Positions 13,423 to 44,551 of a stretch of DNA of 64,000 nucleotides are shown in pieces (the first letter of the stretch is position 1; every line of letters starts with the position of its first letter). The stretch lies in assembly GCA_011364905.1 (NCBI GenBank), contig RDNZ01000001.1, positions 130,803-194,802 of the forward strand, read 5' to 3'. The stretch comes from Candidatus Thorarchaeota archaeon (GTDB lineage Archaea; Asgardarchaeota; Thorarchaeia; Thorarchaeales; Thorarchaeaceae). The notes beneath the pieces were generated by a model. That model was not told where the DNA came from. It saw only the letters and a list, made by a program, of their open reading frames with translations, and did not search any database. The position numbers were made by a program, and so were the translations under genes.

Positions 13423-14625
13423 ATGATAGAGGTACGAGAAGCCCGTGAAGAAGACAGAGAGTCTGCGCTAAGAGTGCTCTGGAAAGCATTCGAATCAACC
13501 ACAGGTTATGAAGACTATCTAAAACAAGAGTGGATTAAGAGATGGAACACTCCTGAAAAGGAGAATTACGCCTATGTTGCAGTGGATGGAAGTAAGGTTG
13601 TTTCGAGTCTCTCGTTCTTCACTACCGCTGAACAAGAACAGATTATCAGAGGTGCTCCAGTAAGATTTGGCGGCGTATGGGCAGTTGCAACTGATCCAGC
13701 GTACCGTAGGAAAGGACTAGTCAGGAAGATATTTGATATCTCTTTACCTAGGATGCGAGATGAGAGTGCATCTCTCTCAATCTTAGACCCCTTCTATAGA
13801 CCATTCTATGAGAAATTTTCATACGCATTAGCAGAGAAGCGAGCCTACCATGTATTCACGAGGGACCAAATTAGAGTCGGCAAGACCAGGAACGACATAA
13901 CATCAAGAGAAGCGAAGGACCCAGATGATAGGAAAACAATCCAGCAAATCGAAAGAACAATGACACGGTTTGGCTCTAGGTTCTTCACGAGTGGCGAGTT
14001 CATGGACTATGTCATGAAGAATGGTATTATGCATATACTTGAGGACGATAGTGGGCCAGTAGGCAGTGTGTGGTTCAACTTCACGAAAGGACCACCGAGG
14101 GAGCCTCCTGAACTGACTGTCGGTATGTCGAGATACGCGCGCGATGATGTTTTTCCCTCAATCGTCGAGTTGGTTCGTAACCACTCAGTTAACGTGAGCA
14201 AAGTTTCATGGTGGACCGATGCTGATGTTCCAGTCAGACATTATTTCAGTGATATCCATCGAACCGAGTCGCATTTGATAGGCTCTATGATGATGAGGGT
14301 TGTTGATATTGAAGGCTACTGCCGAAGTATCAAGATTCCTGAAGATACGACAGAAAAAGTCACTATTGAGTTGACTGATGATCAATGTCCATGGAACAAT
14401 GGTATCTTTACTCTTGTTCCTGATGGAGGTAAACTAACAGCTGAAAGGAGTGACTCAGAACCAGACATATCTCTTAACGCATTTCAGTTATCGGAAGTGA
14501 TTGCAGGGATTACTCCACCGACACTTCTTAGGTCTCTAAAGGAGATCGACTGCGATGAAAAGACAGCAAGAAGACTTGAGGACATATTCCCTGCTGATGC
14601 ATTTGTATCGTACACTCGTTTCTGA
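13423..14625 (+). CDS. Eis-like GNAT acetyltransferase with C-terminal SCP2-like domain
   Basis: VWAVATDPAYRRKGLV, FYEKFSY, MMRVVD and D.QCPWNNG motifs. Confidence 0.85.
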   Translation: MIEVREAREEDRESALRVLWKAFESTTGYEDYLKQEWIKRWNTPEKENYAYVAVDGSKVVSSLSFFTTAEQEQIIRGAPVRFGGVWAVATDPAYRRKGLVRKIFDISLPRMRDESASLSILDPFYRPFYEKFSYALAEKRAYHVFTRDQIRVGKTRNDITSREAKDPDDRKTIQQIERTMTRFGSRFFTSGEFMDYVMKNGIMHILEDDSGPVGSVWFNFTKGPPREPPELTVGMSRYARDDVFPSIVELVRNHSVNVSKVSWWTDADVPVRHYFSDIHRTESHLIGSMMMRVVDIEGYCRSIKIPEDTTEKVTIELTDDQCPWNNGIFTLVPDGGKLTAERSDSEPDISLNAFQLSEVIAGITPPTLLRSLKEIDCDEKTARRLEDIFPADAFVSYTRF

Positions 14626-14678
14626 TTATACTAGTCTACCATAGAGAAGGTCCGGAAAAGGACAAAGCCAATCCGAAT

Positions 14679-15563
14679 TCATTTCAATGATTTAACGAAG
14701 TTGTCTGCACAGGTCTCTGAACAGAAGGACTGAGATTTCCCTTCCACGTTTCTCAAAATCATTTCGCCTTTCTCTATAGAGTCACCGCAGTACGAACAAA
14801 CTGCATCCATGTCTGTTGTATTTCCACAGCAAGGAGTGAGAATAACATCTTTGATCTCCTTTTGGATACCAAGAAACTCGTCATTATCAGAGAGGAAGAT
14901 GTATGCAAGTCCTTGGAGCAAGTCACTCAAAGCGGTGGATTCGATATCGACATCCTTCATTTGAGTCGCTAGATACTCCATCGTTTCATCAACCATTTCA
15001 ATCTGCCGCAGCATAAGGTCTTCCAGATGTCCCCAATCTTTTTCCTTCATGTCGACATTTAGGCCATCTTTGAAAAGCTTGAAGTATGAACCTACAACAT
15101 CGCCGCTCATCTTCGAGTCAATGATAATGAAGACTTTCGCTGTACGTCTATAGTAAATCCCTCGACGACTCTTACTATCGTCTTCATCTTTTTGAGAGAA
15201 TTCCTCCACAAGACCTTGTTCTACCAGTTTTGGTAAATGATAATAGCAGTTGTATTTTGATACATCCACCTCTGGGAGATATTGCTCGACGTTTGCCACG
15301 ATGTCAGGCACAGTCAACCAGAAACGTTTAGTCTTCTTTTCCTCCACCACAGTCGTGCGCACCTTCGTGCCATCAGCCTTGATCGTTTCTTCTGTGGTTG
15401 TATGCTCTTTGATGCTCTCAGTTCCATACCGGAGGGCAACAAGAATAGCACGCCGAATAGGATCTCGAAAAGATTCGACAAGGTCTCGGTTAGTAATCAT
15501 GAAGTAACTGCGTACTTTTGAATCAGGGAAAACTGGTTGTGGTTCTGTGGACAATATTCGCAC
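14679..15563 (-). CDS. Winged-HTH (ArsR-like) regulator with C-terminal TRASH/YHS-like metal-binding motif
   Basis: DPIRRAIL...YYHLPKLVEQGLV...YYRRTAK; C-terminal CCG, CSYCG and FCSETC. Confidence 0.75.
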   Translation of the reverse strand: MRILSTEPQPVFPDSKVRSYFMITNRDLVESFRDPIRRAILVALRYGTESIKEHTTTEETIKADGTKVRTTVVEEKKTKRFWLTVPDIVANVEQYLPEVDVSKYNCYYHLPKLVEQGLVEEFSQKDEDDSKSRRGIYYRRTAKVFIIIDSKMSGDVVGSYFKLFKDGLNVDMKEKDWGHLEDLMLRQIEMVDETMEYLATQMKDVDIESTALSDLLQGLAYIFLSDNDEFLGIQKEIKDVILTPCCGNTTDMDAVCSYCGDSIEKGEMILRNVEGKSQSFCSETCADNFVKSLK

Positions 15564-15674
15564 CGTTTATTTTTCGACAGATACACTAAATCTGCTTCAA
15601 TGCTATAGCTCTTACACTTTTATAGCCTTTGCTATCTTTGTTAGTATTTTCTTTACACCTTTATCAACGATAAG

Positions 15675-15740
15675 TTTATAAGAAAGTGTAATGTTTACAC
15701 TATGTGTAGCATAACAATGTGACAATTGAACTAAATTGTC
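15675..15740 (+). promoter_or_regulatory. TATA box with adjacent palindromic operator(s)
   Basis: TTTATAAG followed by AGTGTAA-N3-TTACACT (15685-15701) and GACAATT-N6-AATTGTC (15721-15740). Confidence 0.55.
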
Positions 15741-15752
15741 TGGGTGATAAAA

Positions 15753-15872
15753 ATGGCGTTCACTAAAACAAGAAAAAGCTCAAAGGGTTGCTGGGAATGC
15801 ACTGAAAGAAACAATCTAGACCGTGTTTCAATATATCAGTACAATAGTCCGGTAGCCTCAATGATTAGGTAA
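15753..15872 (+). CDS. Small CxxC peptide (39 aa)
   Basis: MAFTKTRKSSKGCWECTERNNLDRVSIYQYNSPVASMIR*; GGTGAT SD, TATA upstream, hairpin downstream. Below the ORF-track cutoff. Confidence 0.55.
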   Translation: MAFTKTRKSSKGCWECTERNNLDRVSIYQYNSPVASMIR

Positions 15873-15904
15873 TCCGAGAAAATCTCTCTATTCTCCATAC
15901 TAAG

Positions 15905-15945
15905 GAGGAAGCATCGCACTCAGATCGTGGGTGTGATGCTTCTTC
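15905..15945 (+). terminator. Long stem-loop downstream of the small peptide gene
   Basis: GAGGAAGCATCGCACTCA-gatcg-TGGGTGTGATGCTTCTTC, an 18-bp stem including G-U pairs. Confidence 0.55.
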
Positions 15946-16143
15946 AACTATATCTGCGTGTTGCAGCCAAACCACACTCTTCGAAATTGCTTCCAAGTTT
16001 CAATGCCTTCTTTTCCACATGGACCTGTTTTGAAAAACCATCAATGCTGAGAAACTCAATTCATAGCTTTTGCACAGAATAAAGTGTTTTATTAGTTGCG
16101 ACCATAGGAAGGAACTCTTGCCGTTTGTGTGGAGGAGCGATGG

Positions 16144-19100
16144 ATGAAGAAGGTGAGAACGAACCAAAGGAGGCCTTCCCTGAAATTCATGGCGGCTATT
16201 ATTGTATCAATGTTAGCAGTTTCTACCATAGCCATGATCAGAGTAACAACCGATATTGGCTCTGGAAAAGAGTTAGAACCAATTCCTGTTGACCAGGTAT
16301 ATGCAAGCCACCCCTGTGAAATCAGTTCAGTTCTTGCCCAAGAAGGAGTTTGGGTTTCACCTGATTCATCACTCGCTGGAACTCCATCTCAAGCTCACAC
16401 TACGGTCTCGGATACTTCAGGGACCACGATTGTTGCAGATTTTCATGGATTCTATAGAAACAACACCTTTTCGATAAACGGAACTCTGTATGACAACCTC
16501 GAAATGCCAGGAGCTTTCTCCATGAATGAGCCCGGTAGGCCCATGCTACCACGGTTGTCCGAGTTTGTCGAGATTCCTTTTGACGTTGACGTTTCGGTTC
16601 AAGTCCTCGCCTCATCGTATGTGACAGACACTGGATACAACGTCAGACCTGCTCCCCTCCCCAATGTTCCAGTTGAGCTAAGTGTACCCGACTCTTACAA
16701 TTTGTCCCTATTCTATCCGGCTCCAACAATCTTCGACCCTGTGTATTCGAGAAATGCCTTCTTTCCCGGAAATGGTACCAGTGTTAGTGGAGAAACAACC
16801 GCGACATCGATAGTGATAAGGGGCCACAGACTGCTGGAACTCAACTTCTATCCCGTTCAGTTCAATCCTGTAACAGGAAACGCTCTGATGTTCTCCCAAT
16901 TAGTAATTAAACTAAAGTATAGCAAGCCTGCTCAGATTCAGCCAGTTCGAAGCTCGTTGCGATCAGATATCTTTGAGCAAATCATTCGTGACTCCATTTT
17001 ATACTACGATCCTATCCACATCCAACACTCTGAAACCTTGGGCGAACCGTTCCTGTACTCAATCACACCACCGTCGCCGCCATCTTCTCCAAATTCCACG
17101 GTGCATATGTTCTCTCAGTCCCAATTGATCCCAGAGGATGTAAGCGGCGAGTATCTGATTATCACAACCGACCTTCTCAAACCTCAAGCTCTGAAACTAG
17201 CCGCTTGGAAACAGCAAAAGGGCGTTCGCTCCGCAGTCTATTCCTTTTCGGAACCACCAACAACAACAGATGTAAGGGCGGTAATTGAATTTGCTTACAA
17301 CAATGCGATTCCAGCTCCGACATATGTCTTGCTTTTTGGAGATGTCGAAATCATTCCAACTAATTATGACATGAATCATAGAGCAAAGTTCGGCCCGGGT
17401 TTTCCGCCTCCTCTTTTTCAACCAAATACGGATGGTTTCGGTACCATTGCATCGGACTTAGGCTACTTCAATATTGAGGGGCATAGATATTTCCCCGATA
17501 TGATTTACAGCCGGATATCAGTGGACACCCCAGAACAAGCCGAGATAGTCGTAAACAAGACTCTTCAATATGAGCAGTCTCCGCCATTTCAACCAGAGTT
17601 CTATAGCAATATGCTGTCAACTGGATATTTCAATGACATGAAACCCAGAAATGGGATAGAAGACAGAGAGTACCCATTTGTCTATTATCTTGAAAAGATT
17701 AGAGAATTTTTGGAATCGGACTATGCTTACAAAGTGAACTACACCTATACACGGTCGGATGCTCAAATACCGGTGAAGTTCTACACTCGATTCGATCCGA
17801 CAGATCCAGACTCCAATCTGCTGTCGAACTCACCCCTAGCTGACTATTACTGGCCTGAAGAAGAGGTCAATCCAATTTTGGCTGCTCCTGTAATAGAGAG
17901 ATTGCAGTCAGTTTTCAATCAAGGAAGTTTCTTCGCTCTCTATTACGGTCATGGCAGTTCGACGAATATGGTCTACAACTTTGATGCGAATCCAAGGGAA
18001 GGCATAGAAGGATGGGTCACGCCATACTTCGACACCTCTTGTGTTCGGGATTTGGTGAATGGAAATAAGACACCATTGATAGTGAGTATGGGTTGCAATA
18101 CTGGATGGTTTGATGGTGAAACCGATCAAACGTACATGGATATCTCCGGGTTGGTTCCAAATCCTTTTAGTTCTGTGGCGAGCGAATGCTTCGCTGAGAA
18201 CATTACAAGGATGAAAGATGGGGGCGCTATTGCGGTAATTGCAGCTTCACGTCCAGCTTATGCACGAATCAGCGGAGATCTACTAAACGGAATAGTCCAA
18301 GCCTTCTGGCCAGGATTTCAAGAGTCTGAAAATCAACCCATTTACGAAATGGGTGCGGCTCTACTTTTCAGCAAGTTACAGGTAGCACACGCAAGGATGA
18401 CTCGCTATGATCCAGAGGCGCAAACCAGAACAACATTCGAAGAATTCCATCTCTTTGGCGACCCTGAAACACAGCTTTGGACAGAGAATCCTTCCAATTT
18501 TAGTGTCGAGTATCAGCCCATCGGAACCACAGGTGACCAGAAGTTTGCTGTGACCGTCAAAAACAAAGACACCGGTGATCGCGTCCCTGGAGCCAAGGTT
18601 TGTATCCAACAGGGCACATATATCTATCAAGTTGGTTATACGGACAATTGGGGTCAAATAAGATTCAATTGCGATCCATTTGATACATTATCATCTCTCA
18701 ATGTGACTGTGACAAAACACAATTTCAGACCATATATCGGTGAAGTCGAGACTTTTGCGCCGGACTACATTAGTCCCACTGGAGAGCCCCCCACAGTTAG
18801 CGCTTCCCCCGAATCAGTCGTTGTGGGCAGAGATGTAAAAATCATCGTATCTGGATTCGATGAACAGCAAGAAGTAAACATATTTTTCGATGGAGTGGAG
18901 CAATATCCGCCGATACCTGTGGGCTCAAACGAAGTTCAAATACCTGTACCTGACGATGAGCCACCTATCGTTACAGTCACTGCGAAACAAGGTAATACTC
19001 GGGCATCTAATTATTTCAAACGATTATCTACAGACCAGAATCCTGATTCTTACATCTATTCGCAGTATGACGAAAGCACTTGGCATCTTGCAAATTACGA

Positions 19101-33766: not shown

Positions 33767-33841
33767 TTTGTTGCTATAGAATCAAAATTCCTTGAATTAA
33801 GAACACTCATCCCAGCAACGGATTAGCAAAAAAGAAAGGAT

Positions 33842-33940
33842 GGAAGGAGGTGCGACCCGCGCACCCTTGCGGGGTGTGTCAAGCCCGGCCCGTTCGTTTA
33901 CAGCCGAACCTTCATCCGCCGCCGGTCACTAGCTCCTTCC
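33842..33940 (-). promoter_or_regulatory. Eukaryote-type SECIS element (core 33878-33915) with extended basal stem
   Basis: Minus strand: AUGA-AGGUUCGGCU-GUAAACGAACG-GGCCGGGCUU-GAC, i.e. AUGA/GA core, 10-bp helix and apical AAA. Basal pairing GGAAGGAG/CUCCUUCC and GUGACC/GGUCGC. Confidence 0.85.
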
Positions 33941-34064
33941 TGACTAACTCGCGACCCTCATCGTCTACAACGACCAGATGAGCGCCGCAGGATAGTCAGC
34001 AGTCATAACACCGAACAACCATCTCAATGATGTTCAGTATTCCTTCAGGTATTTCGTCAGTCAT
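33912..34064 (-). CDS. vhuU: Selenocysteine-containing [NiFeSe]-hydrogenase small peptide subunit (50 aa; in-frame TGA at 33996-33998 = Sec23)
   Basis: MTDEIPEGILNIIEMVVRCYDC-U-LSCGAHLVVVDDEGRELVRKELVTGGG*; AAGGTG SD; directly follows an mvhA lacking this motif; SECIS downstream. Confidence 0.92.
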
Positions 34065-34075
34065 AGTGTACACCT

Positions 34076-35392
34076 TTATTTTTTGACCATTGGCTCAGGG
34101 AGTTTGAGACCCTCGAGAGCCTTGTCCTCGAAAATCTGCTTAGCCGCGACCATGAGGCTCTTCTCGATACCTGCAATGTTGTTGTTTGTCGCAACCACCA
34201 GATTAGCTTTAGTAAGCATTCCTTTTTCGTCTGATACATAGTTGTGCATCAGTGTTCCTCGTGGAGCCTCAACGATACCGACACCGTTTCCAGCTTTGGG
34301 TTCAACATCCACAACCTTCACATCAGTGTCGCAAATGTCTGGATCATTGAGGAGCTTGGCAATCCACTCGAAGGCCTGGACCATCTCCACTATCCTTGCA
34401 TAGTGATATGCAAAGGTGTGATGTGAAGGTCGACCAACCAATTCACGCATCTCCTTGAGGGCGGCATCAGCTAGCGGAGTAGCCATTCTCTCATTTACAT
34501 TGCACCTTGCTAGCGTATTAGCTCTCCAAATTCCCTCTGGATATCCTGCTGGTTTGTAGTATATGTGAGTTGCGTAGCTATGGTCCGATACATACTCACC
34601 GTAGTACTTCGTGTAGTCCTTTGGCTCAAAGTCAGCTACAATCTCACCACCAGGCTCCTGCACTCGAACAGTGCCATCATAGATGTCAAGTGTTCCCTTG
34701 TTTGAAAGACCGAGGTAGTAGGTTGGCACGACAGCTACCTTTGTGATAACATCGAGATAGTCTGTGACAACCTTCTTCGCAAGGTCCACTGTGTTCAAAG
34801 TCAATTGTTGAATCTCCTCGAGTCTTCCTAGAAAGAAGTCACGGTCTTCCTCCTTCAACGATGTTAACATTCCTCCGGGAATCGCTGTTGTTGGGTGGAC
34901 CGCCTTTGCTCCTACAGTCTTGATCAGCTCCTGGCCAAACTCCATCATCTTGATGGCTTGGACTGCCACATCAGGGAGGTCTCGTAAGACTGCAGCAACG
35001 TTCCTGTCCGCAGGATTGGCAAAAGGTCCGTAGACGAAGTCTGGTGCCGCAAGAGCATAGAAGTGAATCACATGCGAGGAGAACTGCTTTGCTTCAATCA
35101 TCAGTCTGCGCAACTTGACTGCAGTTGGAGTTGGTGAAACTCCCCAAGCAGCCTCAACTGCTTTCACAGATGCGAGATGATGGGGGATTGGGCAGATTCC
35201 ACAGATTCTTGGTGCAATTCTAGGAGCCTCTTCCATTGGGCGACCCTCTAGAAACTTCTCAAAGAATCTTGTGGAGTTCACATTAAACTGAACGTCCTTG
35301 ACCTTGCCATCCTTCCCAAGCTTCAGAGTAAGGGAACCATGTCCTTCGAGTCGAGTAACTGGATCAATTCGAATAGTCTTTTCTTCGGTCAC
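34076..35392 (-). CDS. mvhA: Group 3c [NiFe(Se)]-hydrogenase large subunit, split form without the C-terminal CxxC
   Basis: PVTRLEGH, RFFEKFLEGR, RICGICPIPHH, VEAPRGTL.H.Y, VATNNN; no DPCxxC at the end. Confidence 0.95.
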   Translation of the reverse strand: MTEEKTIRIDPVTRLEGHGSLTLKLGKDGKVKDVQFNVNSTRFFEKFLEGRPMEEAPRIAPRICGICPIPHHLASVKAVEAAWGVSPTPTAVKLRRLMIEAKQFSSHVIHFYALAAPDFVYGPFANPADRNVAAVLRDLPDVAVQAIKMMEFGQELIKTVGAKAVHPTTAIPGGMLTSLKEEDRDFFLGRLEEIQQLTLNTVDLAKKVVTDYLDVITKVAVVPTYYLGLSNKGTLDIYDGTVRVQEPGGEIVADFEPKDYTKYYGEYVSDHSYATHIYYKPAGYPEGIWRANTLARCNVNERMATPLADAALKEMRELVGRPSHHTFAYHYARIVEMVQAFEWIAKLLNDPDICDTDVKVVDVEPKAGNGVGIVEAPRGTLMHNYVSDEKGMLTKANLVVATNNNIAGIEKSLMVAAKQIFEDKALEGLKLPEPMVKK

Positions 35393-36312
35393 CGGGTTTT
35401 AACCTCTTCTCGCTTGATTCGTATTTGCCCTAAGTTACTGGTAGCATAGTCGAAACGATAGAATGTCCCTAACGGGTCTTTTACTTGTTCTTTGATTTGT
35501 TCGGAGGGGAGAGGAGCGTATGTGCCAAGCATTGCCATAGAGTTGGCGCCATGATCCTGCAATATTGGAGGAGGCGGGCCAAAACAACCCCTGCAAGTGG
35601 CACCCTTATTCACGCACTGACCCTCGCATAATCCCCAAGTTGACGAACCCATGCAGATGTAGCCCTGCTCAAGAAGACATCTGTCTGGATCCGCGATTCC
35701 TTGATACGGGCGTAAGATTTTCTCAACGGGGGTCTCTTTCTTCTCACGTTCGCAGTAATGACAAACTGTATGTGGTGGAAGTTCGATAGGTTCGCCAGCA
35801 AGAAGCTTCGTAACAGCTGTGAGAATCAGTTTAGAAGTGGGGGGACAGCCGGGAAGGTAGATATCTATGTCTACAAAGCTGTTGTTAGGTTTCACCACGG
35901 GAGCAATACCAGGCAGATTCTCACTTGGAACCTTTCCACCAGTCACAGTAGCATTCTCGCGAAACTTGACATCATAGCACTCCTCTATATCGGAAAAGTT
36001 TGCTAGACCTGGAATTCCGCCGAAGCATGAACATGAACCAAATGCAATCAGTACTTGGCATTTATCACGCAACAACTTGAGAAGGTGAATATCCTCCTCA
36101 GTCCGGGCCATTCCTTCATACAGACCGACAACTATAGATTTGTCTTCGTAACTCTCGAGGTGATGGAGTTTGAAGTCAGCCACTGCTTGCCAGTACTTTA
36201 TTTCAAGAGCTGGGAGAACTTGAGCCAAATTGAGATGGATGTCCACAAGGCTTTGGAAGCAGCCCCAGCAGGAACTGCCTTGGCCCATTGCAATGGAAAC
36301 AGGATCAGCCAA
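35389..36312 (-). CDS. mvhG: F420-non-reducing hydrogenase small (Fe-S) subunit
   Basis: CWGC, FGSCSCFGGIPGLAN, PGCPP, CHYC, CLLEQGYICMG and CRGCFGP. Confidence 0.93.
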   Translation of the reverse strand: MADPVSIAMGQGSSCWGCFQSLVDIHLNLAQVLPALEIKYWQAVADFKLHHLESYEDKSIVVGLYEGMARTEEDIHLLKLLRDKCQVLIAFGSCSCFGGIPGLANFSDIEECYDVKFRENATVTGGKVPSENLPGIAPVVKPNNSFVDIDIYLPGCPPTSKLILTAVTKLLAGEPIELPPHTVCHYCEREKKETPVEKILRPYQGIADPDRCLLEQGYICMGSSTWGLCEGQCVNKGATCRGCFGPPPPILQDHGANSMAMLGTYAPLPSEQIKEQVKDPLGTFYRFDYATSNLGQIRIKREEVKTR

Positions 36313-36314
36313 TC

Positions 36315-36557
36315 TCAGACCTCCTTCAGTGTGTAGACCATCTCGTCATTTTCTTCTCCGGTCACTTCGACTTCGCCCCAACGAAGCATCCCCAGTAGGT
36401 TCCAAACAACCAAATCAGTATCGTATTGCGTCGCCTCTGCAATCTTCGATACCGGGGCAGGTCCGCCCTTGAGGAAGTCGCCAATGGCTTTTCGTTGTTT
36501 GCGAACATCGCCTCGTTTTTGCGAGAAGAAACGTCCAAACATATTACTCAAACCCAT
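36315..36557 (-). CDS. Small winged-helix protein within the mvh operon
   Basis: 80 aa; I.DFLKGGPAPVSKIAEAT...G.VEV...YTL wHTH pattern; tightly packed between mvhD and mvhG. Confidence 0.75.
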   Translation of the reverse strand: MGLSNMFGRFFSQKRGDVRKQRKAIGDFLKGGPAPVSKIAEATQYDTDLVVWNLLGMLRWGEVEVTGEENDEMVYTLKEV

Positions 36558-37003
36558 TCCCTCCTTATTGGTCCAAGCTTTCGTACTTGTTCGGTGAGTG
36601 TCCTAACACCATCTGCGAAAACCTGCGCCTCTGAGGCACTCGCCCATTGAAGCCGCACCCTACGAGGATCGACTCCAGCCTGTTCGATGGCAGTCTCCAT
36701 TAGAGCCCATCGAGCCCGGGCTTTCAGATTTCCACTTGTATAATGGCAGTCACCAGGATGACACCCAGAAACAAGCACACCATCTGCGCCCATATTCAGC
36801 GCAGCCAGAATGAATTCTGGACTTATTCGTCCTGTGCAGTTCACTCGAAGAATTCTTGCATTCGTCGGGTACTGTATCCTGCTCGTCCCTGCAAGGTCAG
36901 CACCTGCATACGAACACCAATTACAGCAGAACGCCATAATCTTTGGTTCCCATTCTCCTTGTGAGTCCACAGTTTCAGTAGTTGATAATGACGTTGATGT
37001 CAT
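36548..37003 (-). CDS. mvhD: MvhD [2Fe-2S] subunit, Cys form
   Basis: FCCNWCSYAGADLAG, CTGRI and GCHPGDCHY. Confidence 0.93.
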   Translation of the reverse strand: MTSTSLSTTETVDSQGEWEPKIMAFCCNWCSYAGADLAGTSRIQYPTNARILRVNCTGRISPEFILAALNMGADGVLVSGCHPGDCHYTSGNLKARARWALMETAIEQAGVDPRRVRLQWASASEAQVFADGVRTLTEQVRKLGPIRREWV

Positions 37004-37004
37004 T

Positions 37005-38753
37005 CTATCCACCTCCTTGTATTGATGGTGAAGGGCATAGGAATGCCTCCACCATTGTTAGAATCTGATCATCAGTTGAGTGATACATCACAATAGCGCT
37101 ACTCGGACAAGCGGCAGCGCAGGTTCCACAGCCGTGACATTTTGCCTCGGTCACTACAGCTATTGGCGGATCTTTGGTTTCATCCATTGAAATCGCATTG
37201 TAAGCACAAGCAGTGAGGCATGTGTGACAGCTTGAGCAAAGCTCAGGAATGACATGTGATACAGTGGATTCAATCTCCACTTCACCCTGAGCCATTAGAC
37301 CCACAGCCTTGGCAGCGGCGCCACTAGCGTCAATGACCGATTCTGAAGCATTCTTGGCTGCTTGAGCGGCGCCTGCGATCATCACACCAGCAGTATGAGT
37401 TGTGAGTGGTGCAAGTTTGATATGCTCTGGATTGAAGAACCCATCACCGCTTCGGGTGAGACTGAACAGATGCGAGGTCTCTTCAACATCCTCTGGAGGA
37501 ATCATCGCAGATGCAAGAACCACCATGTCAGGCTCAAACTCAAGATCCTCGTCAGCAAGAACATCGCGCCACTTTATCGTGATTTTGCTTTTCTTGACAA
37601 TGACGTCAGGATATTCGTTCTGCGGGAACTTACTATAGATGACATGCTTCTGTCGAGCCATTCGATGAAACTCTTCATGCCCTTTACCATAAGTTCGAAT
37701 ATCCTGATACAAGACCAGTACTTCATCAACACGGTCTCTCAAATCAGCAGCTGCCTTTGCCGTGGCTGAGCAGCAGTGACGCGAACAATGTTCGTGCCCT
37801 TTAACACCTGGTTGACGAGACCCGACACAGCCGATGAAGACAACCTTCTTCACTGGCTTGCCATTACTGATTTTCAGAAGTTGTTCACTACGAGGAAGCT
37901 CCTGAAGTTCAGCCAAAGTAAGTATGTCAGGGGACTCACCATAGGAATAGTAGCCAACTGGTTTGAATGGTTCAAATCCAGTAGTCACAATCACTGCACC
38001 CACCTCATATCGTTCCTCTTTCTCAGTCTTAAGATTCTTGACAGTGACCCCGAAGTTTCCAATGTAACCATCAAACTCAGAGACCTTGCTCTCTGTGAGG
38101 ATTTTGATTCGTTTGTTTTTCTTGACGTCTCGAATAAGTGGTTTGATTATATCAGCTCCGGTTTCATCAGAGGGGAAAAGATGAGTCCATTTGGCAACAT
38201 TACCACCAAGCTTCGGTGTCTTTTCGACAAGCAACACATCAAATCCACGGTCTGCTATGTCTAATGATGCTCTAAGACCAGCAATACCACCGCCAACCAC
38301 CAGAGTTGTAGGAAGAACATTGACCTTTTTTATCGGCAGATTTTGTAGCTTAGATGCACGCGCAACAGACATTCTTACGAGGTCTATAGCTTTCTCTGTC
38401 GCAAGTTCTGGTTCTCTCATGTGGCACCAAGATACATGTTCCCGAAGGTTGACCTGGTCAAACAGATACCTATTGAGGCCTGCCTCCTCCACAACTCGAC
38501 GGAACGTGGGCTCATGCATACGAGGCGAGCAGCTGGCAACAACAACTCGGTTGAGATTATGTTCTTTGATCTTCTCTTTGATGAGCGTCTGCCCAGCATC
38601 CGAGCACATGAACATCTCATCTGCTGCAAAAGCAACACCTGGCAGATTCGATGCCATATGCGCCACTGCTTCAACATCAACAGTACCAGCTATGTTGTGC
38701 CCACAGTGACAGACAAACACTCCGATTCTTGGTTCATCTTCTGTTCCTGACAT
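37005..38753 (-). CDS. hdrA: HdrA-like subunit lacking the inserted ferredoxin domain
   Basis: IGVFVCHCG, ASCSPRMHE, GGGIAG, CVGSR, CSRHCC, C-terminal ferredoxin; FPSDETGA replaces DCxxC. Confidence 0.88.
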   Translation of the reverse strand: MSGTEDEPRIGVFVCHCGHNIAGTVDVEAVAHMASNLPGVAFAADEMFMCSDAGQTLIKEKIKEHNLNRVVVASCSPRMHEPTFRRVVEEAGLNRYLFDQVNLREHVSWCHMREPELATEKAIDLVRMSVARASKLQNLPIKKVNVLPTTLVVGGGIAGLRASLDIADRGFDVLLVEKTPKLGGNVAKWTHLFPSDETGADIIKPLIRDVKKNKRIKILTESKVSEFDGYIGNFGVTVKNLKTEKEERYEVGAVIVTTGFEPFKPVGYYSYGESPDILTLAELQELPRSEQLLKISNGKPVKKVVFIGCVGSRQPGVKGHEHCSRHCCSATAKAAADLRDRVDEVLVLYQDIRTYGKGHEEFHRMARQKHVIYSKFPQNEYPDVIVKKSKITIKWRDVLADEDLEFEPDMVVLASAMIPPEDVEETSHLFSLTRSGDGFFNPEHIKLAPLTTHTAGVMIAGAAQAAKNASESVIDASGAAAKAVGLMAQGEVEIESTVSHVIPELCSSCHTCLTACAYNAISMDETKDPPIAVVTEAKCHGCGTCAAACPSSAIVMYHSTDDQILTMVEAFLCPSPSIQGGG

Positions 38754-38757
38754 TATG

Positions 38758-40056
38758 TTATGTTCCTCCACTGGATAGGATGATGGTGGCTTTCATTGCA
38801 GCTGCGCTGCCAGCAGATACTGAATCTGGGATATCTTTTGGTCCATCAGCACATCCGCAAACAAAAACGCCTGGGATCTTTGTGATAGTTGGACCGAAGA
38901 AAGTGTGACTGATTTCGATGTAACCATCATTCGTCTGGTCTATACCTATCTTCTTGGCCATCGTGTCCATTCCACTTGAAGGAATTACACCTGGACTGAT
39001 GACCACAAGGTCATGTTCAATAAGTCGAAGTTTGGAAGTGGCTGTGTCCTCAACCTTCACAACAAGGTCGTGAGAACTCTTTCCTTCCATAACCTCCGCA
39101 ACACGACCTCTCACAAAACGAACGCCAAAACGACTCTTGGCCATTTCATAGAATTCCTCAAAGCCTTTACCAAAAGCTCGTATATCTGCATAGTAAACCC
39201 AAACTTCCGCTTCGGGATTATGTTCAAGAGCCATTACAGCATTTTTTATCGAATACATGCAGCATACCCGACTACAGTATGGAACGCCTTTCTGAACATC
39301 TCGTGCGCCAACACATTGAATGAAACCTATTGACTTGGGCTTCTTTCCATCGCTGAGACGAATAAGATGTCCGTGTGTCGGACCAGCTGCGTTGATTAAT
39401 CGTTCGAATTCCATCGCATGAATGACATTGGGGTACTGTCCATACCCAAGACGTGGATACCTTGATACATCGAAGAGTTCAAATCCTGTGGCAATGATGA
39501 TAGTACCGACATCGAGATTGACAAAACTGTCTTTCATCTCCAAGTCAATTGCATTTCTTTCGCAGACTTTCACACATCTGCTGCAATCTATGCAATTCTC
39601 CTTGTCAACCGTATATACATTGGGTGTAGCCTGTGGAAACGGTGTGTAAATTGCTTTTCTAAAACCCAGACCTTGATCAAACTCGTTCGCTACTTCAACA
39701 GGACATTCAGCAGAACAGGCACCACAACCAGAGCAAAGATTCTCTCTTACAAATCGAGCTTTTCTTCTTAGTTTGACCCTGAAGTTACCTGCAGAACCGG
39801 TTACACTCCCAACTTCAGCACATGTCATCAAACGTATGTTTGGGTGCCTAGCAATCTCGCTCAACTTCGGAGTCAATATGCAAGCGCTGCAATCAAGGGT
39901 TGGAAAAGTCTTGTCTAGCATTGCCATGCGTCCACCAATTGAAGGAGACCGTTCAACCAGGTAAACCTTGAACCCCTGATTTGCAATATCTAAAGCAGCT
40001 TGCATTCCAGCAACGCCACCACCTACAACAAGTGCTCTTGCTGTTTCTTTGCTCAT
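38758..40056 (-). CDS. hdrA: Short HdrA-like subunit (FAD domain plus inserted ferredoxin only)
   Basis: GGGVAG, FPTLDCSAC, 2x[4Fe-4S], YCSRVCC and GPKDIPDS; no N-terminal or C-terminal Fe-S domains. Confidence 0.9.
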   Translation of the reverse strand: MSKETARALVVGGGVAGMQAALDIANQGFKVYLVERSPSIGGRMAMLDKTFPTLDCSACILTPKLSEIARHPNIRLMTCAEVGSVTGSAGNFRVKLRRKARFVRENLCSGCGACSAECPVEVANEFDQGLGFRKAIYTPFPQATPNVYTVDKENCIDCSRCVKVCERNAIDLEMKDSFVNLDVGTIIIATGFELFDVSRYPRLGYGQYPNVIHAMEFERLINAAGPTHGHLIRLSDGKKPKSIGFIQCVGARDVQKGVPYCSRVCCMYSIKNAVMALEHNPEAEVWVYYADIRAFGKGFEEFYEMAKSRFGVRFVRGRVAEVMEGKSSHDLVVKVEDTATSKLRLIEHDLVVISPGVIPSSGMDTMAKKIGIDQTNDGYIEISHTFFGPTITKIPGVFVCGCADGPKDIPDSVSAGSAAAMKATIILSSGGT

Positions 40057-40067
40057 TTCATTTGCTC

Positions 40068-40934
40068 CTAATGTGCTTCTAGAATTGCCTGTGGACTAAT
40101 CTTGTTCAGTTGTATGCCTAACGATTCAGAATCAATCCCAATTGCAGGACCCAAGAGCTGAGGTAGTGTCATGCACGGGATCTTAGGCTTGTCTGAGGCG
40201 CCTTCACCGAACTGAACTTGCGTCAATTGAATATCACAGAATACACAGGCAGTGACAATTCCATCAGCATTCTCTGCTCTGATATTCTCAATCTTGTCAC
40301 GACCTATTGCATTTCCAACTTCATCATCCATGGCCAGAAGTGGTCCACCACAACAACGAGTCTTTCCAGTATAGTCGACGGGGGTTCCACCTACAGCCTC
40401 GATTATACGATCAATGATAGTAGGATTTTCAGCGTCATCAACTTGGACAATCTCCTCGGGTCTAGTAACATGGCATCCATAGTGCGCTGCTAACCGAAGA
40501 TCCTTGTAGGGATTGACAACCGCCGACTTGATGGCGTCATAGCCAATATCTTCACGGAAGACTTGAAGTAGATGCTTGACCTGCACGGTGCCGGTGTACT
40601 TCAGACCCTCCTCTTCCAGGATATCGTTGACTTCATTACGAAGCTCTTCATTACTATCAAGATCGTGCTTGACATGCTTGAGAGATCCTGAACACGCTCC
40701 GCATATTGCTAGTATGTCCAAATCCATGCTCTCAGCAAGAGCGAGAATCCTGCCACACATTGCTGAAAACGCAGTGTGACTCACCGACTCAATGTACTGA
40801 GCCCCGCAACAGTTTGCGTCTTTCATTGTTGTAAGCTTGATACCAAGTTTCTCCAGAACTACGTGCACTGCTCTCTCATACGCAGGCAACCGAACGGGTG
40901 TGGTGCATCCTGTATAGAGAACGAATTCTTTCAT
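40068..40934 (-). CDS. hdrB: Heterodisulfide reductase subunit B
   Basis: GCTTP...NCCGAQ...CGAC and HYGCH...RCCGG...CVFC. Confidence 0.92.
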   Translation of the reverse strand: MKEFVLYTGCTTPVRLPAYERAVHVVLEKLGIKLTTMKDANCCGAQYIESVSHTAFSAMCGRILALAESMDLDILAICGACSGSLKHVKHDLDSNEELRNEVNDILEEEGLKYTGTVQVKHLLQVFREDIGYDAIKSAVVNPYKDLRLAAHYGCHVTRPEEIVQVDDAENPTIIDRIIEAVGGTPVDYTGKTRCCGGPLLAMDDEVGNAIGRDKIENIRAENADGIVTACVFCDIQLTQVQFGEGASDKPKIPCMTLPQLLGPAIGIDSESLGIQLNKISPQAILEAH

Positions 40935-41452
40935 ACTTCAATGCCTCCCTTGAAGTATCTTTTCTTAATCTTCTTGACAAACTCAGTATTCCATCCGAGG
41001 TCTGCGTCTAGTCCCAAATCAGAGCGATCATCTTCCTCAAAATCTGTGTATGAGTCATTTAGCATCCAACCATCTTCAAGCACTTTATCGATTGCGTTCT
41101 GAAAGACAGCAGGGATGTAACCTTCGCGAGCAGCAATCTCACGAACAGCAGTGAATATGTCCGTGGGGTCAACATCTTCCTGACAACGCTCCTCACAGAG
41201 TCTGCAGGTCATACATAACCAGGGTAGCTCGCTAGTAAGCACTTCCTCTCTTTTCCCAAGGAGTATCTTCTGTATGAGCTTTCTTGGCCGATATCTATCA
41301 GTCATGTTCGCGACCATGCATGAGGCAGTACACATTCCACATTGAATACAATGCATTATGCCTGATCCACCAGGTTCCAGCTCAATTTCCTTGGCAAAGC
41401 TTGAACTTGGCTCATGATAGGCAGGCAATTCGGTATTTACATGTTCAGTCAT
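40931..41452 (-). CDS. hdrC: Heterodisulfide reductase subunit C
   Basis: CIQCGMCTASC and PWLCMTCRLCEERC. Confidence 0.92.
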   Translation of the reverse strand: MTEHVNTELPAYHEPSSSFAKEIELEPGGSGIMHCIQCGMCTASCMVANMTDRYRPRKLIQKILLGKREEVLTSELPWLCMTCRLCEERCQEDVDPTDIFTAVREIAAREGYIPAVFQNAIDKVLEDGWMLNDSYTDFEEDDRSDLGLDADLGWNTEFVKKIKKRYFKGGIEV

Positions 41453-41472
41453 TTTTCACCACGTTCCATTTA

Positions 41473-44217
41473 TTATTCATCAACTTTCGATAGTATGATA
41501 GTCGCTCTCATTGCAGCAGCACTTCCTGCTGAAACAGAGTCAGGGATGTCCTTGGGACCATCAGCACATCCACACACGAACACTCCATCAATGGAGGTAT
41601 CAACAGGTCGGATGACCTGGTCTTCGACAGTTACATATCCTTCCTCAGAGAGGTCCATGTTGAGTTCAACCGCAATATCCGCCAGACCCTCTGGTGGTTG
41701 GACACCAGGACTAATCACAACCAGGTCATGATGCACTTCGTGTAGTTCGCCTTTCACAGTATCTTCGAATCTTACACTTAGTGAGTCGGTTTGCTTGTCA
41801 GGATTAACTTCTGCAACCCTTCCACGAACAAAATTAACGCCGAACCGTGTTCGAGCCATTTCGTAAAACTCCTCGAAGCCTTTGCCAAATGCCCGGATAT
41901 CGGCGTAGTAAACTGTGACTTCGGTGTCAGGATTGTGCTCCTTTGCCATGACTGCATTTTTGATCCCGTACATGCAGCATACGCGGCTGCAGTATGGAAC
42001 ACCTTTCTGGACATCGCGAGCTCCAACGCACTGAATGAACCCAATGCTCTTGGGAGCCTTCCCATCGGTCAGCCGCACAAGGTGCCCATGTGTTGGGCCA
42101 GCGGCGTTAATGAGCCGCTCATATTCCAATGCATGAATAACATTAGGTAGACGGCCGTATCCAAACTGTGGATACTCAGTAATGTCAAAAAGGCGATACC
42201 CAGTGGCCAGTACAATGGCACCTACATGAAGGTCGAGGACTGAGTCATTCATTGAATGATCAATTGCTTCACGCGTACAAGCCGCGACACACTGCTCGCA
42301 CTCACAACAGTTTGCACAGCCCAAACATCGTTCTGCTTCAGCAGCAGCCACAGCATCATTGAAACCGAGCTCAACCTCCGAGAATCCACGTTTTCTACTA
42401 TTGATTGCTTGTTTTGGCATTGCGGCGCGGTTATCAAATGGTATGTTAGTCTTGTCGACCTCAAATGACTGCACTCTGTGCCGTTCTTTGATGCGTCCCT
42501 CTTTGAGGTCCACACCACGGATGTATCTGTCAATAGAAAGAGCAGCATCCTTTCCATGACCCACAGCTTTTACGACGGTAAGAGGTCCAAGAACCACATC
42601 TCCACCTGCAAACACACCAGGAATACTTGTTTCCAAAGTTATGGGATCTGCTTTTACTGTGGCCCACTCTGAGCAATCAAGTTCAGTCTGTACGCCGTGT
42701 GGGTCTGCAGACTGTCCAATAGCAATAATCATAGAATCAATTGCCATTGTAAATTCCGAATTTGGAATTGGGACCGGACGCCTTCTGCCTGAATGATCAG
42801 GCTCACCTAGTCGCATCCTCATGCATCTGATTCCAGTAATTTTGCCTTTGGAAGAGAGAATCTCCACCGGAGATGTAAGGAGCATGATCCTGATTCCTTC
42901 TTCCTTCGCATCGTCAACTTCGCTTGGTATTGCAGGCAGCTCGACATGAGACCGTCTATAGATGAGTGTGACTTCTTTGGCTCCTAATCTTATTGCAGTA
43001 CGAGCAGAGTCAATCGCAGCATCCCCACCCCCGATGACAGCGACCTTCTCGCCTATCTCAACTTCCTTACCTTTGTTCACTCTTTCAAGGAAGTCAATCG
43101 CATGGACTACTCCTTCAGATTCTTCGCCTGCAATTCCCAGTTTGTTACTTTGCCATGTACCAGTAGCAACGAAGACTGCTCTGAAACCTTTCTCCTTGAG
43201 GTCGTGAATCGACTTAACTCGTGTATTGGTCTTGATCTTGACACCCATATCGACAACACGCTGAATCTCCTCATCCAGAATATCACGTGGCAAACGATAC
43301 TCAGGAATTGCATATCTGAGCATTCCACCAGCTTCCTCGCGAGCTTCGAAGACAGTTACAGGGTAGCCCATCCGTGCAAGATGATAGGCACAGCTAATTC
43401 CCCCTGGACCTCCACCGACGACAGCAACTCTTTCTTTCTTGTCAATCTTTGCTTCTACTGGAGCCGCTCCATGCGCTCGTTCATAGTCTGCAAGAAATCT
43501 GTGAAGATTTCTTATACTGACGCTTTCATCATGCATTCCTCTCTCGCATTCGGCCTCACAGAAGCTGATACAAACCCGACCCAAAACCCCAGGGAATGGA
43601 ATAGACCGTCTTACTATCTCAAGGGCTTCTTTCATTTTTCCGTGTCGCATCATGGTCACAAAACCTTGTGCATTGACCTCTGCAGGACAAGTAGCTCGAC
43701 AGGATGGTTCTCCCTTCTTATCAACGGTCACGACGTTTGGCGTTGCTTGAGGGAATGGCGTATAGATAGCCTTTCGAAAACCAAGTCCCTGATCGAACTC
43801 ATTAGGTAGCTCCACGGGGCAAACTGAAACGCAGTCTCCGCATCCGGAGCATTTGCTTTCATCCACATAACGAGCTTTTTTGTGAATCCGAACTCGGAAG
43901 TCCCCTGTTTCACCTTGGACTGACTTGATTTCTGAATAGGTTATCAGGTCAATGTTTGGATGCCTTGACACTTCACTGAGTTTAGGTGTGAGAATGCATG
44001 CACTGCAGTCCAGGGTTGGGAATGTCTTATCGATCATCGCCATGCGACCGCCAATCGAGGGCGACTTTTCAAGGAGTGTAACCTTGAATCCTTGATTGGC
44101 AATGTCTAGAGCTGCTTGCATACCGGCTACTCCGCCACCTACGACGAGGGCCTCATTAGATTTGATACCGTGTTCGGTACTGTCAGTAACTGATTTTGAC
44201 TGTCTCTCAATGGTCAT
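41473..44217 (-). CDS. hdrA: HdrA-like subunit with GltD/SudA-like insert, lacking the N-terminal and C-terminal Fe-S domains
   Basis: FPTLDCSAC, CRATCPA...GRVC...GGGPGG...GGGDAAIDSAR, YCSRVCC. Start reassigned to ATG 44217 (GGAGG upstream). Confidence 0.9.
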   Translation of the reverse strand: MTIERQSKSVTDSTEHGIKSNEALVVGGGVAGMQAALDIANQGFKVTLLEKSPSIGGRMAMIDKTFPTLDCSACILTPKLSEVSRHPNIDLITYSEIKSVQGETGDFRVRIHKKARYVDESKCSGCGDCVSVCPVELPNEFDQGLGFRKAIYTPFPQATPNVVTVDKKGEPSCRATCPAEVNAQGFVTMMRHGKMKEALEIVRRSIPFPGVLGRVCISFCEAECERGMHDESVSIRNLHRFLADYERAHGAAPVEAKIDKKERVAVVGGGPGGISCAYHLARMGYPVTVFEAREEAGGMLRYAIPEYRLPRDILDEEIQRVVDMGVKIKTNTRVKSIHDLKEKGFRAVFVATGTWQSNKLGIAGEESEGVVHAIDFLERVNKGKEVEIGEKVAVIGGGDAAIDSARTAIRLGAKEVTLIYRRSHVELPAIPSEVDDAKEEGIRIMLLTSPVEILSSKGKITGIRCMRMRLGEPDHSGRRRPVPIPNSEFTMAIDSMIIAIGQSADPHGVQTELDCSEWATVKADPITLETSIPGVFAGGDVVLGPLTVVKAVGHGKDAALSIDRYIRGVDLKEGRIKERHRVQSFEVDKTNIPFDNRAAMPKQAINSRKRGFSEVELGFNDAVAAAEAERCLGCANCCECEQCVAACTREAIDHSMNDSVLDLHVGAIVLATGYRLFDITEYPQFGYGRLPNVIHALEYERLINAAGPTHGHLVRLTDGKAPKSIGFIQCVGARDVQKGVPYCSRVCCMYGIKNAVMAKEHNPDTEVTVYYADIRAFGKGFEEFYEMARTRFGVNFVRGRVAEVNPDKQTDSLSVRFEDTVKGELHEVHHDLVVISPGVQPPEGLADIAVELNMDLSEEGYVTVEDQVIRPVDTSIDGVFVCGCADGPKDIPDSVSAGSAAAMRATIILSKVDE

Positions 44218-44551
44218 ATGCTGTCCTCCGGAATCACCACGCAAATCTCGTAATAGAGAGGTCCGGCGATATGTCTGAGAATTGCACGTCCCACTGAGTA
44301 TTGGTGGCACCATGCACGCATCGAAGTCTTTGTTATAGTCGCGTCTTCTTTCAAAGCCAATCGCCGTGACCTAGGTCACTTCTTGTGAATAACCAAAGAC
44401 TATATGCTTGTCGAGTATGACAACGTAAAATGGCATAGTGATGGATATCCATTTGAGACATGAACAAGCAAGAAATGAATGAAAACATCCATTTTTCAAA
44501 GAATATTGGAATGCGCATTTTTGGTGCTGTTACAATTTGAAATTTCTAGCA

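Follow-up and report, generated by a model that had tools for sequence, protein, structure and literature searches.

Sequence evidence for a probable selenocysteine-decoded VhuU peptide that would complete a split group 3c hydrogenase in a Thorarchaeota genome, with cysteine in place of the usual proline beside the selenium ligand

How could a [NiFe]-hydrogenase large subunit work if it ends before its C-terminal nickel-binding motif? The question is raised by a 64,000-nt stretch of DNA from a Candidatus Thorarchaeota archaeon (hereafter the window), which belongs to an assembly of 95 contigs that is 81% complete. All vhu, mvh and hdr features of the window lie on the minus strand, among them a vhuA (mvhA) gene that encodes such a truncated protein. 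Without a further gene, vhuU, this sole hydrogenase large subunit found in the genome looks catalytically dead. An earlier note on the same DNA had proposed that the missing motif is supplied by a hidden selenoprotein, VhuU, encoded just downstream, and that its Cys-selenocysteine pair is atypical. We consider it very probable that the locus is best explained as a split group 3c hydrogenase with a selenocysteine (Sec)-decoded VhuU that undergoes maturation and carries a second-shell cysteine, Cys22, next to the Sec.

The 438-residue translation of vhuA bore out the starting point of that proposal. It contains RICGIC, with the arginine of the APRG motif at residue 377, and terminates with ...LPEPMVKK followed by TAA, the (C/U)xxCxxH motif being missing. 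The overlooked 50-codon frame, said to lie 11 nt downstream of the large subunit gene and to read RCYDC-TGA-LSCGAH, was recovered at exactly the coordinates given, including those of the TGA (Table 1). With TGA translated as Sec, VhuU reads MTDEIPEGILNIIEMVVRCYDCULSCGAH and continues with a 21-residue tail. The segment from M1 to H29 counts 29 residues, which agrees with the mature length that had been predicted, the cleavage itself being presumed: by analogy with Methanococcus VhuU, the extension past His29 would be removed by a maturation endopeptidase. A HycI-family protease is encoded in the genome, where vhuU is single-copy. Gene finders missed vhuU because one of its codons is a UGA read as selenocysteine. 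In this window and in locus L013 vhuA and vhuU are in different frames; neither of those two loci therefore has a natural read-through fusion.

Comparison with hydrogenases of known structure placed the Sec at the nickel site. VhuU aligns with the C-terminal Ni motif in structurally characterised [NiFe] hydrogenases (PDB 3zfs_A, 7t2r_D and 5odc_F), its U falling on the first Cys of DPCLSCxxH, and also with 9sfi_M, the 27-residue mature VhuU chain of Methanococcus maripaludis. The claim that the TGA stands at the Ni-ligand position is thus upheld. The best PDB matches of the large subunit are VhuA and MvhA; among solved structures the split M. maripaludis VhuA ranks first (9sfi_g, E 3e-125). 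An RxCGxC large subunit, MvhG, MvhD and HdrA are encoded in one cluster according to Pfam, as expected of a group 3c [NiFe] hydrogenase. As part of the explanation given above, the locus would encode the catalytic half of a group 3c Mvh/Vhu-type hydrogenase, its large subunit being divided between VhuA and the selenopeptide VhuU.

The same arrangement was observed at 15 loci of relatives, in which vhuU follows vhuA and has the same motif and a conserved tail. In order to cover the Asgard archaea, 400 genomes were scanned with a degenerate DNA pattern for E-x3-R-x-[YF]-D-x-U-x2-C-x2-H in which the residue before Sec was left free. The pattern was present in 203 of them, belonging to 11 GTDB families, and a reversed-pattern control gave 0; chance agreement cannot account for the motif. 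A broad scan of one genome per prokaryotic species, with a DNA pattern for E-x3-R-x-[YF]-D-C-U-x2-C-x2-H, yielded at least 119 stretches. Among the matches listed, 116 of 119 were bona fide VhuU, nearly all matches were in records of Thor-, Loki/Promethe-, Hel-, Hod-, Jord-, Borr- and Atabeyarchaea, and the nearest VhuU sequences came from Thorarchaeota metagenome-assembled genomes (MAGs). Altogether, TGA at the same codon and the downstream frame were conserved in more than 150 homologous loci. The earlier note had named a lack of conservation downstream of the TGA as a ground for rejecting VhuU; the TGA position, the Asp-Cys before it and the frame after it are all conserved in these loci, and the objection fails.

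Asgard-like, near-identical vhuU genes were also detected on contigs filed as Bacteroidales, Deferrimicrobium, Nanopelagicaceae and Thermoproteota MAGs (L043, L048, L070 and L065). These bacterial or otherwise labelled contigs are probably mis-binned in public MAGs. A second truncated VhuA paralog, 60–70% identical and with RICGIC and APRG intact, occurs in several genomes with no vhuU downstream (L023 in G009, L024 in G006, L025 in G036; contig C55 of G017, contig C57 of G003). G017 and G003 each possess one vhuU for two vhuA genes, and no vhuU was found in G009 and G006, both of which are 83% complete. Either a single VhuU is shared by both large subunits, or the partner gene is missing from the assembly.

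The components for Sec synthesis and insertion that the earlier note had listed as a check (tRNA-Sec, SelD, PSTK, SecS and EFSec) were all detected in the genome, PSTK below its curated cut-off, and the objection that the machinery might be missing does not apply. The tRNA-Sec scored 58 bits against a cut-off of 47 and sits on contig 16; ARAGORN detected no tRNA inside the 64-kb window. A PSTK-like gene adjoins it (E 1.5e-39) and, together with SepSecS (E 3.9e-115) and EFSec (281 bits, cut-off 242), forms a cluster of about 4.3 kb (14394–18674). SelD is encoded on contig 57 (211 bits) with one in-frame TGA, which suggests that it is itself a selenoprotein.

A selenocysteine insertion sequence (SECIS) element of the lokiSECIS type, a eukaryote-like kink-turn element, overlaps the end of vhuU. 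The UGA of its AUGA (33915–33912) also terminates vhuU. Among 117 unique homolog downstream sequences, 88 can form at least 8 of the 9 stem pairs, compared with 6 of 117 shuffled controls, and all nine stem positions show several Watson-Crick pair types among these homologs. Methanococcal genes have an archaeal GAA_A-type SECIS, not a eukaryote-like one. The architecture is the same as that of the published Loki SECIS, with a loop of 13 nt here versus 11 nt in Loki (PMC4989117). A scan of the window with Rfam at gathering thresholds gave 0 matches, although whether Rfam contains a lokiSECIS model was not checked. Further downstream, two overlapping GC-rich hairpins are followed by a T-run. After the SECIS, Thor- and Loki-type homologs again have a CCC...GGG hairpin, whose stem reaches at least 5 bp in 86 of 116 sequences versus 32 of 116 shuffles. 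Judged from the sequence, these hairpins are probably a terminator, though they may instead contribute to recoding. Taken together, the gene anatomy, the alignments, the conserved TGA and frame and the Sec machinery support the proposal that a VhuU selenopeptide would complete a split [NiFeSe] hydrogenase.

The window gene is a member of the published Asgard VhuU family, and the family, its SECIS and the Sec machinery are already known. VhuU selenoproteins with lokiSECIS were described in Lokiarchaeota (Mariotti et al. 2016, PMC4989117), and the same work explicitly describes a VhuU gene in which the AUGA of the eukaryote-like lokiSECIS doubles as the stop codon. A later survey (Huang et al. 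2024, PMC11227280) found VhuU in 68% of the Asgard archaea that use Sec, and these two papers confirm what the earlier note had stated about Asgard VhuU. Its presence in Atabey- and Freyarchaeia was also reported (Valentin-Alvarado et al. 2024, PMC11291895). The published Asgard VhuU is the same gene of about 50 codons with one Sec beside vhuA, and its SECIS (AUGA, 9-bp stem, A-rich loop) overlaps the stop codon. There is no essential difference, apart from the extra coding hairpin that Thor-type genes have at the UGA, and knowledge of Asgard selenoproteins is not altered by this finding.

The only detail that is apparently undiscussed is the conserved, phylum-wide Cys next to the Sec. Asp-Cys-Sec is unmentioned in the full texts of papers on the Asgard selenoproteome, on Asgard hydrogenases and on Vhu structures and in 87 supplement files of PMC11227280 (the supplement of PMC4989117 was not included), and motif-string searches returned no mention of it. 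Mariotti et al. remark on a Cys adjoining Sec in HdrA, not in VhuU (PMC4989117).

Outside the Asgard archaea, the closest known system is the VhuA/VhuU F420-non-reducing [NiFeSe] hydrogenase of M. maripaludis (PDB 9sfi, Hdr-Vhu-Fwd complex, PMC13518236). It has the same split, a small (U)xxCxxH Sec peptide and MvhD, MvhG and HdrA as partners, but its VhuU reads RAYDP-U where the window has RCYDC-U, and the window organism is not a methanogen. The bacterial periplasmic [NiFeSe] hydrogenases (Desulfovibrio vulgaris Hildenborough and Dm. baculatum; PDB 2wpn and 1cc1) likewise have Sec in place of the terminal Ni-ligand Cys. They differ in belonging to group 1, in having an unsplit large subunit and a DPU motif, and in placing a bacterial SECIS within the coding region; the bacterial large subunit matches the window VhuA over its N-terminal part only.

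Asp-Pro-(Cys/Sec) is found in every non-Asgard hydrogenase aligned to VhuU here, and the fused Cys-type MvhA of other Asgard lineages reads RAYDPC (L029–L034). Among 161 VhuU loci, Cys precedes Sec in 158, encoded by TGC in 120 and by TGT in 38; selection therefore acts on the amino acid. The exceptions are Pro in two species of one genus (L179 and L180) and Asn in one genome (L176), and Phe was seen in a single genome that appears only in the table of the 400-genome scan. The earlier note had regarded Cys-Sec as atypical for the DP(C/U) motif. This is correct relative to M. maripaludis VhuU (DPU) and to fused MvhA (DPC), but within the Asgard archaea Asp-Cys-Sec is the rule. A Promethearchaeum record (L089), for instance, likewise reads RCYDCU. 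The window VhuU lacks the Asp-Pro-Sec form, a variation within the Asgard branch that gives no ground for excluding it. The second peculiarity that had been pointed out, RCY for RAY, is real here when compared with the RAY of M. maripaludis VhuU, but position 19 is variable in the 161 loci (C 132, N 10, S 9, A 8 and I 2).

The Asp-Cys-Cys pattern was detected in 3 of the 400 Asgard genomes, once in a re-fused full-length subunit and twice in split genes without SECIS. TGY thus replaces the Sec TGA in three derived lineages, and TGA is kept in all D-x-U loci. On a VhuA tree (FastTree, rooted on the fused DPC forms), the variants with Pro or Asn and each of the three Cys-Cys forms branch at separate places inside the Asp-Cys-Sec clade, and Asp-Cys-Sec is therefore taken as ancestral for the Asgard split enzyme. 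The re-fused subunit (L197, contig C211 of G166), a full-length Asp-Cys-Cys protein, is nested among split Sec-type genes and apparently arose by secondary fusion following the Sec-to-Cys change. According to the same tree, Cys22 was retained in 3 of 3 Sec-to-Cys reversions and Sec was retained at least once after loss of Cys22. As losses occurred in either direction, Cys22 and Sec are separable. A partner Cys co-occurring with Cys22 was also looked for in VhuA. Apart from the two Ni-ligand Cys, each present in 87 of 87 aligned Asgard VhuA sequences, none is invariant, and VhuA therefore offers no obligatory partner thiol. These observations are consistent with the view, part of our overall explanation, that Asp-Cys-Sec became fixed when the Asgard split VhuA/VhuU clade arose and that purifying selection on the amino acid has maintained it since.

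Cys22 is most likely a lineage-specific second-shell replacement of the usual Pro. As such it could tune the site or provide a thiol close by, and it would not be an obligatory redox partner of the Sec. A second-shell substitution is at least as likely as selenenyl-sulfide chemistry. Several points weigh against this interpretation or against the larger explanation to which it belongs. Conservation of Cys22 is very strong, with a handful of exceptions in about 200 genomes, which suggests more than a neutral packing residue. The loci compared are phylogenetically related, and their counts overstate independence. The PSTK candidate scored 136 bits against a curated cut-off of 290, though it lies beside tRNA-Sec. 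Finally, Sec insertion, cleavage and activity are predicted here from the genes.

The strong selection on Cys22, exerted at the amino-acid level with both codons and across 11 Asgard families, would also be expected if Cys22 were a resolving cysteine that forms a reversible selenenyl-sulfide with Sec23, either upon oxidation of the selenium or before nickel insertion, so as to protect or reactivate the site. As VhuA has no invariant partner Cys, Sec23 or Cys19 would be the nearest candidates for such a bond. In thioredoxin reductase, the vicinal Cys-Sec of the GCUG end is competent for this chemistry, and in oxidised bacterial [NiFeSe] hydrogenase the Sec forms Se-S species. The thioredoxin reductase Gly-Cys-Sec-Gly shares with VhuU only the vicinal pair, a chemical resemblance with no homology. 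There the pair belongs to a flexible C-terminal tail and undergoes selenenyl-sulfide cycling, whereas that of the window is inside a metal-binding motif with Sec as Ni ligand. The genus with Sec yet Pro (DPU) and the single genomes with Asn or Phe do not fit a resolving function, nor does the persistence of Cys22 in all three independent Sec-to-Cys reversions. Moreover, with Sec bound to Ni and the usual extended D-P-C geometry, neighbouring side chains would point in opposite directions. We therefore regard a resolving role as unlikely. A more specific version, to which we give somewhat less credence still, is that the oxidised selenium leaves the nickel and forms a Cys22-Sec23 selenenyl-sulfide that is re-reduced by the enzyme's own electrons, Cys22 acting as a built-in resolving thiol. 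If true, this would amount to thioredoxin-reductase-like chemistry on a metal site and would explain the resilience of these sediment archaea to O2 or oxidants.

The spacing of RCYDC is that of a C-x-x-C motif and Cys19 is present in 132 of the 161 loci, which might indicate that Cys19 and Cys22 make up a unit of their own, acting as a disulfide switch or as an additional metal site by the Ni-Fe centre. However, entire lineages (Hel-, Jord- and other types) have N, S, A or I at position 19 and yet retain Cys22. A paired function can therefore not be general, and we consider this proposal very improbable.

The Cys22 codon might instead be kept for RNA reasons, as UGA context or as part of the coding hairpin, and not for the protein. 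This long hairpin forms within the coding sequence of vhuU. The Sec UGA is at its base, and it starts at the third base of the Cys22 codon. Canonical pairs account for 91% of the pair cells in 35 unique Thor-like sequences, where several pairs have changed on both sides. For 57 Loki-like sequences the paired share is 34%, and shuffled sequences fold at least as well; the coding hairpin is thus Thor-specific. The third base of the Thor-type Cys22 codon pairs with a G of the hairpin, and TGC occurs in 34 of 35 sequences, the lone TGT having a compensating A. The near-exclusive TGC of Thor-type genes can be attributed to this pairing. In contrast, Loki-type genes have no such hairpin, use both codons about equally (TGC 29, TGT 28) and still encode Cys, and the Cys-type derivatives without SECIS also retain Cys22. 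As the hairpin is Thor-specific and the Cys is phylum-wide, the hairpin cannot explain the identity of residue 22, and the RNA reading is largely refuted, its probability being slight.

A reading of the TGA as genuine termination, as an error of sequencing or as the lesion of a pseudogene, with the hydrogenase inactive, is scarcely credible, since nothing beyond termination at TGA by standard gene callers speaks for it and it is contradicted by the same TGA codon in more than 150 loci together with the conserved downstream frame, SECIS and complete Sec machinery.

For the preferred reading, a second-shell Cys22 in a Sec-decoded VhuU, the following sequence of events may be envisaged. By analogy with Methanococcus VhuU, EFSec and the Sec-tRNA would decode the UGA at 33996–33998. 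In Thor-type genes the coding hairpin, which starts at this UGA, may additionally favour recoding as a second signal comparable to the eukaryotic Sec redefinition element. VhuU would then dock on VhuA, so that VhuA Cys64 and Cys67 and VhuU Sec23 and Cys26 could hold the Ni-Fe centre. Once nickel is in place, cleavage behind His29 by a HycI-type protease would leave a 29-residue peptide, as in [NiFe]-hydrogenase maturation. The mature enzyme would work with MvhG, MvhD and HdrA, encoded just upstream, as the H2 module of an Mvh-Hdr-type complex.

As vhuU is missed by standard gene calls, metabolic reconstructions built on such calls will overlook or misread the H2 metabolism of Thor-type Asgard archaea. 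In addition, the phylum-wide replacement of Pro by Cys beside the selenium ligand amounts to a natural experiment on how the second sphere tunes [NiFeSe] sites, and genetic systems already available for Vhu or for bacterial [NiFeSe] enzymes would allow it to be tested.

Table 1. Features of the vhu/mvh/hdr locus, in window coordinates.
Feature	Position	Strand	Description	Evidence
Overlapping GC-rich hairpins	33828..33876	-	33862-33876 (CACCC/GGGTG) and 33848-33866 (GGGTGCG/CGCACCT), then T-run	
lokiSECIS-type element	33879..33915	-	AUGA, 9-bp stem (33903-33911 with 33881-33889), 13-nt A-rich loop, then GA	Fold and covariation
vhuU	33912..34064 (frame 33915-34064)	-	50 codons and TGA stop; ATG at 34064; predicted to give Sec23, Cys26 and His29 of Ni motif	
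VhuU C-terminal extension	33915..33977	-	21 codons beyond His29	Length and sequence conserved in homologs
Coding hairpin	33938..34001	-	Long hairpin inside vhuU, Sec UGA at base	Minimum free energy z-score -3.1
His29 codon	33978-33980	-		
Cys26 codon	33987-33989	-		
In-frame TGA	33996..33998	-	Predicted Sec23, terminal Ni ligand position	
Cys22 codon	33999..34001	-	TGC; Pro position of DP(C/U)	Cys in 158/161 homologous loci
vhuA-vhuU spacer	34065..34075	-	11 nt between vhuA stop and vhuU ATG; ribosome-binding-like GGTG inside	Sequence
vhuA/mvhA	34076..35392	-	[NiFe]-hydrogenase large subunit, 438 aa, without C-terminal Ni motif	PF00374, E 1.2e-30
RICGIC codons of vhuA	35192..35209	-	R62-I-C64-G-I-C67, N-terminal Ni/Fe-ligand Cys pair (residues 62-67)	
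mvhG/vhuG	35389..36312	-	Hydrogenase small subunit	PF01058, E 3.5e-20
mvhD/vhuD	36548..37012	-	Cys-type, no in-frame TGA	PF02662, E 2.4e-51, full-length profile match
hdrA	37005..38771	-	588 aa, Cys-type; start GTG 38771 or ATG 38753	FAD/Fer4 domains, translation

The neighbouring hdrA was also considered as a selenoprotein. Read with TGA as U it would have 641 residues, and this candidate was rejected because the translation showed the added residues to be junk preceding the canonical MSGTEDEPRIGVFVCHCG start. Between mvhD and mvhG an open reading frame of 80 codons (36315–36557, minus strand) overlaps the mvhD stop by 10 nt. It has no Pfam match, and its sequence (…AIGDFLKGGPAPVSKIAEAT…) looks like that of a small winged-helix protein. 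Upstream of mvhD, the region 37005–44313 (minus strand) contains hdrA and a gene for a 432-residue HdrA-like FAD/ferredoxin protein that overlaps hdrA by 14 nt. The same region encodes a 288-residue CCG-domain (HdrB-like) protein and a 946-residue fusion of GltD/NfnB-like and HdrA-like parts. From its predicted products, 37005–44313 appears to be an electron-bifurcation cluster that exceeds the plain hdrABC-mvhADG set.

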